The position numbers and the translations under genes were made by a program. Of a DNA stretch of 64,000 bases, positions 16,223 through 18,529 are shown one piece after another. The stretch lies in NCBI RefSeq assembly GCF_053078305.1, contig NZ_CP166879.1; one strand, 5' to 3'. A model generated the notes under the pieces. It was not told the DNA's origin. It saw nothing but the letters and a program-made list of their open reading frames with translations, and did not search any database. The number at the start of each line of letters is the position of its first letter. The stretch's first letter is position 1.

Positions 16223-18529
16223 TCAATACAACTCATCAAGTTTTCTCATCGCTTGTTCCCGTATTGCGCGCGTCTTACCGTTAAGCGCCAGCTGGCGAAC
16301 TAAATCCAGTTCAGGGTTAACAAGCTCTAACGCCAGCAAAGGATCACGTTTCAGCCTCGCCTTTAATACATCAACTGGAAAACGGGGATTATTCATCGCC
16401 ACAATCCACCACTCGGGATCAATTTCTGCCGCCAGTACTGCAGGCGGTGTGTGGCGGTTGTTAAGTGCGCCGAACTTGAAAAATGTGAGATTGCTTTTCG
16501 CCAGTGTACTCCACCATATACGATCCGGTTGTTTTGCCAGTACATCCAGTTGTGCTAACGCATCGGGGTCTAGTGCATAATAAACACGTAACGCTTCGTT
16601 AACCTGCGCACGGGAACTGTTTTCCTGCCTCAGAAAAAACTTCGCCCAAATATCATTGCGTGGCGTGTTTTGCTGTAATTCCTTGAGAACAACAGCGGGT
16701 AAATTATCCCAACTAATTAATGCTCTCTCTAAAAAGTCCCAGTCGTCCGAACGTATCAGAGAGGTGGCATTTAATAGCATCTGGTCATCAACTTCACCGT
16801 AGCTGATAAGCTCAGACAAAATCATATCAGCGCTGGTTTCATATGCATCTGAATCTGCTTTGGGATTATTTTTCCGATGCGATAAAGCACGTTGCCAAAT
16901 TTTTTGTTTCATCGACGTGCTCAGATACTGATTTTTCGCCAGATTACTCCACCCCTCAGGATCGTTGAAACGTGTCAATAACCGTTGTAAAGCAGCGTCA
17001 GAGTGAATTATCTGCATATCCCGACAGCAAAAGTAGGCAGGGGATTTTTTCTCCATCCTTTTAACAAAATTAAACTGTAAGTTATCTGGCAACGCTAAAA
17101 ATAACGCACCTATTAGATCATCGTCATTCTCGAATTTTTGGTATAAATATACTGCTATTTTGTCACTCTCTTGTGGCGTCATCCGCAACAATTGACCATG
17201 GTGTTTCATCTCTGCCAGCTTTAACGCTAAGCTTGTGACAACATCGTTTGATGAATCGTTCGCCAACTGCATTGCCTGATTGTAGGTGAGTTGTCCTCCA
17301 GCACCGACCTGACGAATAGAGGAATCATCACTGCGGATATAGCCATCAATAATGGATTCGGGCAATAACCACGCATCTTTATAAAGCTCCTGAATGATCA
17401 TATCCCAATCTCTTTTCGCCAGAGTCATGACGATATCCAGAGGGAGATTTTCACGTAGCGCAAGATTCAACGGACCGACACCATCAGGTAGATGACTCAT
17501 TCGCGTCATTATTTCGACAGAGAGCGGTTCACGGTCGAGCAACCCCAGAACAACAGGCTGGTAACCCAATTGCTGATCGGTCAACTCCAGAATCTCATTG
17601 TCAGGCATATATCTCGCCATACTTGCAATCGTTTGTCCATCATTGCTATTAATAAGTTGTTTGCGTAGGTTAGCTGAAATTCCTTTAAGCCTTGGGAGAG
17701 TTCGCATTATGGCAAGATCAAATGTCGCAATATCTCGTCCTTCAAATGCAGCAACGTTGCCTTCATCCAGCATTTGCAATTCCTGCACTAACTCAGGAGA
17801 AGGCTTAGGGCGAAACAGCGCTTCTTTTTTCATCTGATTACAGACATTCCCTGCCATGCGAATATTGCTTCGCTTAAAAATTTCTTTCAGAGCATCTTCA
17901 TCATTTATTAGACCCCAATAATATGCATCAGGATTTATTATCTTCAACGCTTTTTTGACATTTTCAGTGTCATTTTTATCACTCGCACGGACCATGAATT
18001 CACTATTTGTCGAAGACGCAACAACAGGTGCAATTATGTCATTGATAAATATCCCACGCGCATTAATACTCCCCTTAATCGTAGACGGATTATCGTAATA
18101 TGAGTCGATAAATACCAGTCCACTTGCATTTATCGAACCGGTAATTAACAGTGGTGAATCCGTAACTATATTCGTTGCCGTCACGTTACCGAGAATAACC
18201 CATGGATTAGAAAGAGAGAAAGTGGAAATATTACCTTTGACTGTCAAATTGCCAAGAACAATCAATTTTTGATTACTCTCTATATTACCTTCTACCACTA
18301 AATCGCCACGATGCACTTTCCAGTCCGATGCAGATAAACCGAAGGGGACAAGATTCACGCTACTGTTGATAGCTTGTTCAACTTGTTGTTTATCTTCAGC
18401 GGTAGCCGCAGAAAAAAATGGTTCAATATCAACTGCATTTGCAACACATCGAAGTTCCGCCTGTACTGGAAGACTCAGCATAAACAGGGGGAGTAAACCT
18501 ATCCAGCTGCAAATCCTGGGCTTAAACAT
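16223..18529 (-). CDS. ydbD: Large secreted protein of unknown function
   Basis: 768 aa from MFKPRICSWIGLLPLFMLSLPVQA (signal peptide); N-terminal region has repeated LGN-TV-GNI segments. Confidence 0.85.
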   Translation of the reverse strand: MFKPRICSWIGLLPLFMLSLPVQAELRCVANAVDIEPFFSAATAEDKQQVEQAINSSVNLVPFGLSASDWKVHRGDLVVEGNIESNQKLIVLGNLTVKGNISTFSLSNPWVILGNVTATNIVTDSPLLITGSINASGLVFIDSYYDNPSTIKGSINARGIFINDIIAPVVASSTNSEFMVRASDKNDTENVKKALKIINPDAYYWGLINDEDALKEIFKRSNIRMAGNVCNQMKKEALFRPKPSPELVQELQMLDEGNVAAFEGRDIATFDLAIMRTLPRLKGISANLRKQLINSNDGQTIASMARYMPDNEILELTDQQLGYQPVVLGLLDREPLSVEIMTRMSHLPDGVGPLNLALRENLPLDIVMTLAKRDWDMIIQELYKDAWLLPESIIDGYIRSDDSSIRQVGAGGQLTYNQAMQLANDSSNDVVTSLALKLAEMKHHGQLLRMTPQESDKIAVYLYQKFENDDDLIGALFLALPDNLQFNFVKRMEKKSPAYFCCRDMQIIHSDAALQRLLTRFNDPEGWSNLAKNQYLSTSMKQKIWQRALSHRKNNPKADSDAYETSADMILSELISYGEVDDQMLLNATSLIRSDDWDFLERALISWDNLPAVVLKELQQNTPRNDIWAKFFLRQENSSRAQVNEALRVYYALDPDALAQLDVLAKQPDRIWWSTLAKSNLTFFKFGALNNRHTPPAVLAAEIDPEWWIVAMNNPRFPVDVLKARLKRDPLLALELVNPELDLVRQLALNGKTRAIREQAMRKLDELY

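Follow-up and report, generated by a model that had tools for sequence, protein, structure and literature searches.

YdbD of Escherichia coli: a predicted exported protein with a putatively capped β-helix and a long α-helical solenoid

The analyzed DNA is a window of 64,000 nucleotides from contig NZ_CP166879.1 (assembly GCF_053078305.1), in which ydbD is encoded on the minus strand. E. coli XH990 and other strains encode the same YdbD protein (100% identity), which RefSeq names 'DUF2773 domain-containing bactofilin'. Upstream, pdxI is followed by an intrinsic-terminator-like hairpin that stops approximately 17 nt short of the start of ydbD and therefore leaves no room for a promoter ahead of the start codon. 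An equivalent hairpin is also found in E. albertii. Downstream, ynbA-D come after ydbD on the same strand, separated from it by 169 bp; the initial annotation had described this order correctly without stating that the strand is the minus strand. The GC content of ydbD is 0.43 compared to 0.49 for the whole window, and ydbD, ynbA and ynbB all have low values (0.43–0.45). An autotransporter gene is located two genes from ydbD. The features of the locus and of the encoded protein are as follows.

18546..18585, minus strand: intrinsic-terminator-like hairpin after pdxI (12-bp stem and T-run)
18535..18538, minus strand: GGAG ribosome-binding site, 5 nt before the ATG at 18529 (read from the sequence)
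16223..18529, minus strand: ydbD coding sequence, 768 codons plus stop
18458..18529, minus strand: predicted signal peptide, residues 1–24 (MFKPRICSWIGLLPLFMLSLPVQA before E25; sequence features, conservation)
18329..18457, minus strand: structured N-terminal cap region, residues 25–67, including a helix at 44–57 (models and conservation)
17975..18328, minus strand: right-handed, three-stranded β-helix, residues 68–185 (AlphaFold2 models, repeats)
18224–18256, 18164–18193, 18110–18142 and 18044–18076, minus strand: four repeat segments inside the β-helix
18065..18229, minus strand: 165 nt deleted in frame in a natural allele of 711 aa, residues 101–155, about three helix turns
17795..17974, minus strand: basic linker of lower confidence, residues 186–245 (pLDDT 56–73, pI 9.2)
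16226..17794, minus strand: all-α solenoid of short paired helices, residues about 246–768 (AlphaFold2, Foldseek)
16226..16468, minus strand: Pfam DUF2773 (PF10971), residues 688–768 (E 1e-45)
16054..16222, minus strand: ydbD-ynbA intergenic region, 169 bp, with the mapped ynbA promoter and no terminator-like site

YdbD is a member of a rare family with a scattered distribution in Proteobacteria; about 30 distant full-length relatives at 17–28% identity exist. A profile search of genome contigs with a narrower alignment yielded one more full-length relative, from Tahibacter soli, as well as proteins consisting of the N-domain only in actinomycetes and myxobacteria. Other proteins carry the same N-domain joined to LRR, ankyrin or LRV repeats. 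The neighbors of two loci from this search contained nothing recurrent according to Pfam, and six sampled neighborhoods of distant relatives had no shared genes and no ynb-like genes. A glyoxalase gene beside the homologue of Tahibacter amnicola was taken as a coincidence, as it did not recur in other contexts.

The N-terminus of YdbD is built like a Sec signal peptide, with Lys3 and Arg5, a hydrophobic core of 15 residues (residues 6–20) and the motif P-V-Q-A followed by Glu25. This assessment was made from sequence features. Small residues at positions -3 and -1, a positively charged start and the absence of a lipobox are the features of a signal peptidase I substrate; a lipoprotein reading was dropped, because neither of the two N-terminal cysteines is preceded by a lipobox. 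No other part of YdbD is strongly hydrophobic; the segment is disordered in the AlphaFold2 model (pLDDT <50) and is kept in all Escherichia alleles of ydbD. A clearly hydrophobic start is likewise shared by most members of our 39-sequence alignment (about three quarters when hydropathy is measured in a simple way). The seemingly signal-less member P0039 gains MLKLNILTGCIIMIGLNSFA if its start is placed 12 codons further upstream. Signal peptides are absent from some relatives of the N-domain, so this domain is not confined to exported proteins. The secretion proposed in the initial annotation is in line with this anatomy and its conservation across the family: YdbD is probably exported and its signal peptide cleaved, which would leave a mature protein of 744 aa (83.8 kDa, pI 5.1).

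A full-length AlphaFold2 model, built with the 39-sequence family alignment, reached a pLDDT of 86.6 and a pTM of 0.75, and a model of the N-domain a pLDDT of 90.7. Both models agree on an N-terminal parallel β-helix, as anticipated in the initial annotation, which had proposed structure prediction as a check; the repetitive β-solenoid comprises residues 68–185. The full-length model contains 16 short strands between residues 70 and 181 and helices only thereafter. Turns start near residues 70, 88, 110, 127, 149 and 169 (five to six turns, repeat period 17–22 residues); the turns are tight and the helix is short, without long, cleft-forming loops. The four recurring segments quoted earlier, LGNLTVKGNIS, LGNVTATNIV, TGSINASGLVF and KGSINARGIFI, were all found, at residues 92, 113, 130 and 152. 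The repeats were evaluated by scoring pairs of 10-residue windows (BLOSUM62 score of at least 20) against 200 composition-preserving shuffles. Residues 65–185 contained 8 non-redundant pairs at offsets of 17–22 residues or multiples thereof, compared to 0.65 ± 0.82 pairs after shuffling, and none of the 200 shuffles reached 8. Gly75, Gly93 and Gly114 are invariant in the 39 family members. The segment preceding the helix (residues 25–67) is modeled with a pLDDT of 82–97 in both the full-length and the N-domain model and is conserved in the family alignment; it may cap the β-helix.

A Foldseek search of the N-domain against the PDB gave nothing significant (best E 0.35). The same type of small right-handed helix occurs in the C-terminal domain of MinC (PF03775) and in the β-solenoid of FapA (PF03961). 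Weak echoes of these families were observed (NCBIfam MinC with E 0.011 for YdbD itself, FapA and MinC_C in a few relatives), all of them far under the family cut-offs. Unlike YdbD, these proteins act in the cytoplasm, in division or as flagellar factors.

The linker after the β-helix contains the family-invariant Arg240 in a P-x-F-R-x-x-P motif. It leads into a C-terminal arm of about 40 successive helices with a pLDDT of approximately 90. The long helical C-terminal region noted earlier is thus predicted to be entirely helical, and Foldseek relates it to ARM/HEAT folds: a search with the full model matched ARM/HEAT solenoids with E-values down to 4e-5, but with low TM-scores of 0.1–0.3. The best matches were a designed ARM-type repeat protein, transportin and the A subunit of PP2A. 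The 81-residue DUF2773 profile corresponds to the last solenoid repeats of the model. E. coli YdbD itself has no LRV or HEAT match in Pfam; among the 39 aligned family members LRV_2 was found in 13, HEAT in 10 and LRV in 9. The arm resembles LRV, HEAT and ARM solenoids (PF01816, PF25591, PF02985; importin-β and the PP2A A subunit as structural analogues) as a stack of paired short helices. It differs from them in its low TM-scores and in that its own sequence misses the Pfam models; the classic solenoids are, moreover, cytoplasmic or eukaryotic.

Among 5426 complete E. coli genomes, 3990 contain ydbD, compared to 5210 with pdxI and 4530 with ynbAB. An IS3-truncated copy exists, and an allele encoding 711 aa, which arose by a clean in-frame deletion, is present on many contigs. 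Shortening of the β-helix by about three turns thus appears to be tolerated. Between E. coli and E. albertii the dN/dS ratio of ydbD is 0.16 overall and lowest in the β-helix (0.086); dN is 0.114 compared to 0.041 for pdxI. No sign of positive selection was seen in dN/dS at the domain level. By these substitution rates ydbD is a real, functional gene under purifying selection. It is an accessory gene of Escherichia with low GC content, dispensable and probably acquired horizontally.

In published data, ydbD was raised 3.9-fold by overproduction of sigma-E (PMC2731931), and its expression was below 1 ppm (bioRxiv 10.1101/038851). A sigma-E-type pattern (GAAC N17-20 TCNAA) was not found near ydbD, and the total number of matches was below chance expectation. 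A scan for sigma-70 sites gave no more sites than shuffled sequences and none between the pdxI terminator and ydbD. The 'methylglyoxal' label was traced, through works citing it, to Kim et al. 2007 (PMID 17846588).

Given its position, ydbD could head an operon with ynbABCD and encode, for example, a periplasmic handler of the product of the YnbA-D lipid/glycolipid enzymes. The genes share the strand, ydbD, ynbA and ynbB also a low GC content, and the 169-bp gap has no terminator-like site, so read-through is possible. In transposon data, moreover, ydbD and ynbB each show a fitness defect (bioRxiv 10.1101/038851), in spite of expression below 1 ppm; this shared defect could reflect either a common role or polarity. 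However, the tie to ynbABCD that the initial annotation had implied is not conserved. In E. albertii the order is ydbH-ynbE-ydbL-pdxI-ydbD followed by azoR, and ynbABCD is absent. One E. coli strain that carries the 711-aa allele has unrelated genes downstream of ydbD instead. Conversely, at least 540 complete E. coli genomes contain ynbAB without ydbD, and none of the six distant-relative neighborhoods (0/6) has ynb-like genes. In addition, ynbA has its own BglJ-RcsB-dependent promoter with a start site mapped in the ydbD-ynbA intergenic region (PMC3950696). We therefore consider the operon unlikely, and the best reading of these gene orders is that ydbD functions independently of ynbABCD.

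β-Helices serve as adhesive or stalk modules in autotransporter passengers, two-partner-secretion proteins and tapirins, and YdbD might accordingly be a surface-exposed or released, adhesin-like protein. Its signal peptide, weak pAdhesive_15 matches in some relatives and the autotransporter gene two genes off would fit such a role. On the other hand, YdbD lacks a β-barrel translocator domain, and a TpsB-like or other outer-membrane secretion partner is neither nearby nor conserved in the contexts examined. The neighboring autotransporter is missing in E. albertii and expression is very low. With merely five to six turns, the helix is also far shorter than those of the secreted right-handed β-helix proteins we compared, namely Pet and Hbp, the two-partner-secretion domains of FHA, HxuA and HMW1, and the tapirins of Caldicellulosiruptor. 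None of these is fused to an α-solenoid as YdbD is. Taken together, an adhesin is quite unlikely.

We regard it as very unlikely that YdbD is an orphan periplasmic protein of the inhibitor or immunity type, whose solenoid neutralizes a toxin or an enzyme of a host or competitor. Such a protein could well be built from repeats and exported, as predicted here, and fast evolution (see dN above), a patchy occurrence with variable neighborhoods and frequent loss, and the combination of the N-domain with LRR, ankyrin or LRV repeats elsewhere would be consistent with it. Yet no toxin gene adjoins ydbD in any context examined, PADLOC returned no defense-system match and dN/dS at the domain level gives no indication of positive selection. 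Typical immunity proteins are also far smaller than the 768 aa of YdbD.

The RefSeq name raises the question of whether YdbD is a true bactofilin, whose β-helix would polymerize end to end in the cytoplasm or, more unusually, in the periplasm. A Tahibacter relative is similarly named 'polymer-forming cytoskeletal protein'. Bactofilins (PF04519; BacA of C. crescentus, PDB-entry 2n3d; Thermus thermophilus, 6ria and 6rib) also form a small, right-handed, three-faced β-helix of about six turns, in which each turn takes up approximately 18 residues and glycines occupy the corners. Residues about 70–180 of YdbD can be overlaid with the entire bactofilin core at 1.9–2.5 Å, and the Foldseek match of highest probability (0.44–0.47) is a bactofilin. 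At the sequence level, Pfam Bactofilin matches YdbD weakly (E 0.017), but its score of 15.8 bits misses the family cut-off of 27.9, and E < 0.01 is reached by just 1 of the 39 full-length relatives and by 2 of the 45 N-domain relatives. The YdbD family HMM found no PDB sequence at E <= 10, although BacA and the Thermus bactofilin were both in the database. An hhalign comparison with these two gave a probability of 15% over 25 columns, with sensitivity limited by a bactofilin side of two sequences. Known bactofilins are cytoplasmic, whereas the YdbD family has signal peptides. Furthermore, both ends of the helix are flanked by conserved, confidently modeled structure (the cap and a helical region of 580 residues) in place of the disordered tails of bactofilins. 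The suggestion of a polymerizing fold, made earlier as an alternative to the β-helix, is therefore unsupported: signal peptide, structured flanks and the failed sequence kinship all speak against it, and a true bactofilin is highly improbable.

There is a faint chance that proteins of the YdbD family are exported, bactofilin-like modules and build a higher-order structure in the periplasm, as a 'periskeletal' element or spacer of the envelope under sigma-E stress, with the solenoid recruiting partners. Such an assembly could use surfaces other than the capped ends, and the three-turn deletion allele would then alter the unit length.

That the β-helix is a catalytic domain (polysaccharide lyase or hydrolase) and YdbD an envelope enzyme is close to untenable, since no enzyme family is matched in Pfam, NCBIfam or PADLOC, consistent with the lack of a catalytic motif noted initially, the short, tight-turned helix has no long loops for a cleft, its invariant residues are turn glycines and not acid/base residues, and identity to the enzyme matches is 8–19%.

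Based on the models and the genomic comparisons we favor, as reasonably probable, the following picture. YdbD would be exported by the Sec route and serve in the cell envelope as a soluble, non-enzymatic repeat protein, with a binding or scaffold role that is independent of ynbABCD. The mature, acidic protein of 84 kDa would consist of a small helical N-terminal cap, a rigid β-helix and an LRV/HEAT-type α-solenoid of about 520 residues. The solenoid may offer a long binding surface for a protein or an envelope ligand, while the capped β-helix may act as a rigid head or spacer. Its working form would be a monomer or a small oligomer, not a cytoskeletal filament. Binding would be its most likely mode of action; for repeat folds that lack catalytic motifs, a binding scaffold is what one assumes by default.

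YdbD is among the large uncharacterized proteins remaining in E. coli. As far as present evidence goes, ydbD is an accessory gene that the cell can do without, and its general interest is modest. The picture of an exported capped β-helix joined to an LRV/HEAT-type solenoid is testable, and it replaces the name 'bactofilin', which misleads by suggesting a cytoplasmic polymer. It also removes guilt by association with the lipid genes of ynbABCD, which matters for the reading of transposon fitness data at this locus. If YdbD assembles in the periplasm or binds a specific component of the envelope, it would represent a new type of envelope factor.

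The ydbD gene lies at positions 16223..18529 on the minus strand and reads as an open reading frame of 768 codons plus stop with an ATG start; a second open start, GTG, is located two codons 5' of the ATG. Its DNA is 100% identical to copies in several complete E. coli genomes, where pdxI (ydbC) is found upstream and ynbA-D downstream and the RefSeq product name is 'DUF2773 domain-containing bactofilin'. The GC content is 0.43, compared with 0.49 for the window. The N-terminus, MFKPRICSWIGLLPLFMLSLPVQA followed by E, has the predicted layout of a signal peptidase I substrate without a lipobox, and strongly hydrophobic stretches occur only there. 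As computed from the sequence, the mature protein is acidic and soluble with a mass of 84 kDa. Two elements precede the start codon:

5 nt upstream of the ATG, minus strand: ribosome-binding site GGAG, read from the sequence
18546-18585, minus strand: strong terminator-like hairpin (12-bp stem and T-run) between pdxI and ydbD

The hairpin, which has a similar, conserved counterpart in E. albertii, stops about 17 nt short of the ATG and leaves no room downstream of it for a separate ydbD promoter. Judged from this arrangement, transcription must start within or upstream of pdxI and pass through the hairpin, which fits the reported ydbD expression of under 1 ppm (bioRxiv 10.1101/038851). A search for a sigma-E-type promoter pattern near ydbD found none; a 3.9-fold increase of ydbD upon sigma-E overproduction has been reported (PMC2731931).

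AlphaFold2 modeled the full-length protein from a 39-sequence alignment with a mean pLDDT of 86.6 and a pTM of 0.75. The model comprises:

residues 1-29: disordered
residues 31-67: structured segment with a helix at 44-57
residues 70-181: 16 short strands in five to six three-strand turns
near residues 70, 88, 110, 127, 149 and 169: turn starts
residues 200-245: basic linker of lower confidence
after the linker to residue 768: about 40 short helices in uninterrupted succession

The strand pattern was unchanged in a separate model of residues 30-215 (pLDDT 90.7). Foldseek matched the full-length model to ARM/HEAT solenoids (a designed repeat protein, transportin and the PP2A A subunit) with E-values down to 4e-5, yet low TM-scores. 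The only Pfam model matched by E. coli YdbD is DUF2773 over the last 81 residues; the helical arm of distant relatives matched LRV_2 (13/39), HEAT (10/39) and LRV (9/39). The initial annotation, which had proposed a parallel beta-helix followed by a helical C-terminal region, was thus right about the structure. Neither of the outcomes that it had named as a refutation, a model lacking the repetitive beta-solenoid or a clear match to an enzyme family, occurred. The four recurring segments it quoted start at residues 92, 113, 130 and 152. Residues 65-185 contain 8 non-redundant pairs of matching 10-residue windows (BLOSUM62 >= 20), spaced by 17-22 residues or multiples thereof, against 0.65 +/- 0.82 in 200 composition-preserving shuffles, none of which (0/200) reached 8.

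A word-indexed search returned only Escherichia sequences with 74-98% identity, whereas HMMER, run exhaustively over 1.84 billion representatives, yielded 172 proteins (E <= 0.001). They include about 30 full-length relatives (735-820 aa, 17-28% identity in a multiple alignment) and many shorter proteins that share only residues about 68-165. The 39 aligned full-length members agree without exception on three turn glycines of the repeats (G75, G93 and G114) and on R240, D271 and N533. The majority of the family carries a hydrophobic, signal-like N-terminal segment that stops right before a conserved tryptophan. P0039, a member seemingly devoid of it, gains MLKLNILTGCIIMIGLNSFA when its start is shifted 12 codons upstream in the contig. 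Export therefore looks like a trait of the whole family rather than an E. coli accident. The N-terminal domain is also found in other proteins, fused to repeats of the LRR, ankyrin, LRV or DUF285 kind; signal-like N-termini occur in about a third of those proteins. It is thus a portable module placed ahead of binding-type repeats.

A comparison of E. coli with E. albertii gives ydbD a dN/dS of 0.16 and a dN of 0.114, with the beta-helix as its most constrained part (dN/dS 0.086); the values for pdxI are 0.034 and 0.041. By this comparison ydbD is maintained by selection, yet quick to evolve. About a quarter of the complete E. coli genomes lack the gene, and IS elements occasionally destroy it. 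In E. coli strain E100341 (L023 5001-6514) an IS3-family element has taken the place of all but the last 107 ydbD codons and of everything as far as a truncated tynA, with ynbABCD intact. A natural 711-aa allele, present in many contigs (e.g. L022 3001-5136), lacks the following segment:

18065-18229: residues 101-155, removed by a clean 165-nt in-frame deletion

The junction, AAA GGA AAT joined to AAT GCG, joins turn 2 to turn 5 at equivalent positions, and about three turns are thereby lost. This tolerated loss of whole turns supports the predicted fold and suggests that the beta-helix acts as a rigid body that need not have one precise length. Databases also hold in-frame deletion alleles of 725 aa and 682 aa as well as truncated forms.

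As the initial annotation stated, ydbD lies directly upstream of ynbA-D on the same strand. No terminator-like site was found in the 169-bp gap to ynbA, so read-through is possible. A partnership of YdbD with YnbA-D is nevertheless improbable in our view, even if it is the best of the alternatives. The association is not conserved: in E. albertii (L021 1710-8307) ydbH-ynbE-ydbL-pdxI-ydbD are contiguous on one strand, directly followed by azoR and then hrpA, without ynbABCD or the ydbA autotransporter, which suggests E. coli insertions or E. albertii losses. In an E. coli lineage with the 711-aa allele, unrelated genes lie downstream; six sampled neighbourhoods of distant relatives had nothing in common and contained no ynb-like genes; and of 5426 complete E. 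coli genomes, 5210 have pdxI, 4530 ynbAB and 3990 ydbD. A BglJ-RcsB-activated promoter and transcription start of ynbA were mapped inside the intergenic region (PMC3950696). A low-GC block (14552-18529) with ydbD, ynbA and ynbB (0.43-0.45) lies between pdxI (0.53) and ynbC/ynbD (0.50-0.52), consistent with a foreign origin and with reported H-NS-type silencing of the ynbA promoter. The autotransporter gene in the ydbA position (19673-25567, minus strand; 1964 aa) is intact in the window and absent from the E. albertii locus; near its N-terminus, a 30-nt unit encoding the decapeptide PVPPDDGGDT is repeated in tandem about 12 times (24872-25222).

Structural comparison of the N-terminal domain gave scores of 11.7 for the Pet autotransporter passenger and 11.5 for the FHA and HxuA secretion domains. 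An adhesin-like surface protein is a slightly poorer candidate than a YnbA-D partner. An orphan inhibitor or immunity protein is more doubtful again, and PADLOC matched no defence system. Thermus bactofilin (6ria; 11.5, r.m.s.d. 1.9 Å over 87/89 residues) and BacA (2n3d; 10.6) fit the fold as well, whereas left-handed hexapeptide-repeat helices matched only at an r.m.s.d. near 12 Å. Foldseek with this domain returned nothing significant, the highest probability (0.44-0.47) being a bactofilin. Every sequence test for bactofilins, however, failed. Pfam Bactofilin scored 15.8 bits, under its 27.9-bit cut-off, and very few relatives score better. The N-domain family profile had zero matches among PDB sequences at E <= 10, although BacA and Thermus bactofilin are in that set, as returned for an approximate query. 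The hhalign comparison with their real sequences, recovered in the same way, gave 15% probability over 25 columns. In our reading 'bactofilin' thus describes no more than the shape; we consider polymerisation unlikely, and a true polymerising bactofilin has little to commend it.

An enzyme is the least credible reading: Pfam and NCBIfam offered no enzyme family and PDB sequences no solved relative, and the conserved residues of the beta-helix are structural glycines; the initial annotation, too, saw no obvious catalytic motif.

The methylglyoxal links of ydbD reportedly trace back to one 2007 screen. The Tahibacter amnicola homologue (L020 8410-8943) has a gene of the glyoxalase family and one for an AraC/GyrI-like regulator next to it, an echo of the old methylglyoxal label seen in no other context and probably a coincidence. 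Further mentions comprise a YciT ChIP-exo target list, iron(III)-selection sweeps and a SNP in a persistence strain; none of this literature defines a function.

The gene, the DUF2773 label and the bactofilin-like annotation were already known. New are the failure of the N-terminal domain as a bactofilin by sequence, the predicted export of the family, the modeled LRV/HEAT-type solenoid of the C-terminal arm, the rare distant relatives and the lack of conservation of the ynbABCD link. YdbD is a variant of known repeat-protein kinds. Its anatomy is well supported, and its binding role is inferred: rather probably, YdbD is exported and serves the envelope as a non-enzymatic binding or scaffold protein, in which the solenoid would provide the binding surface and the capped beta-helix a rigid head.
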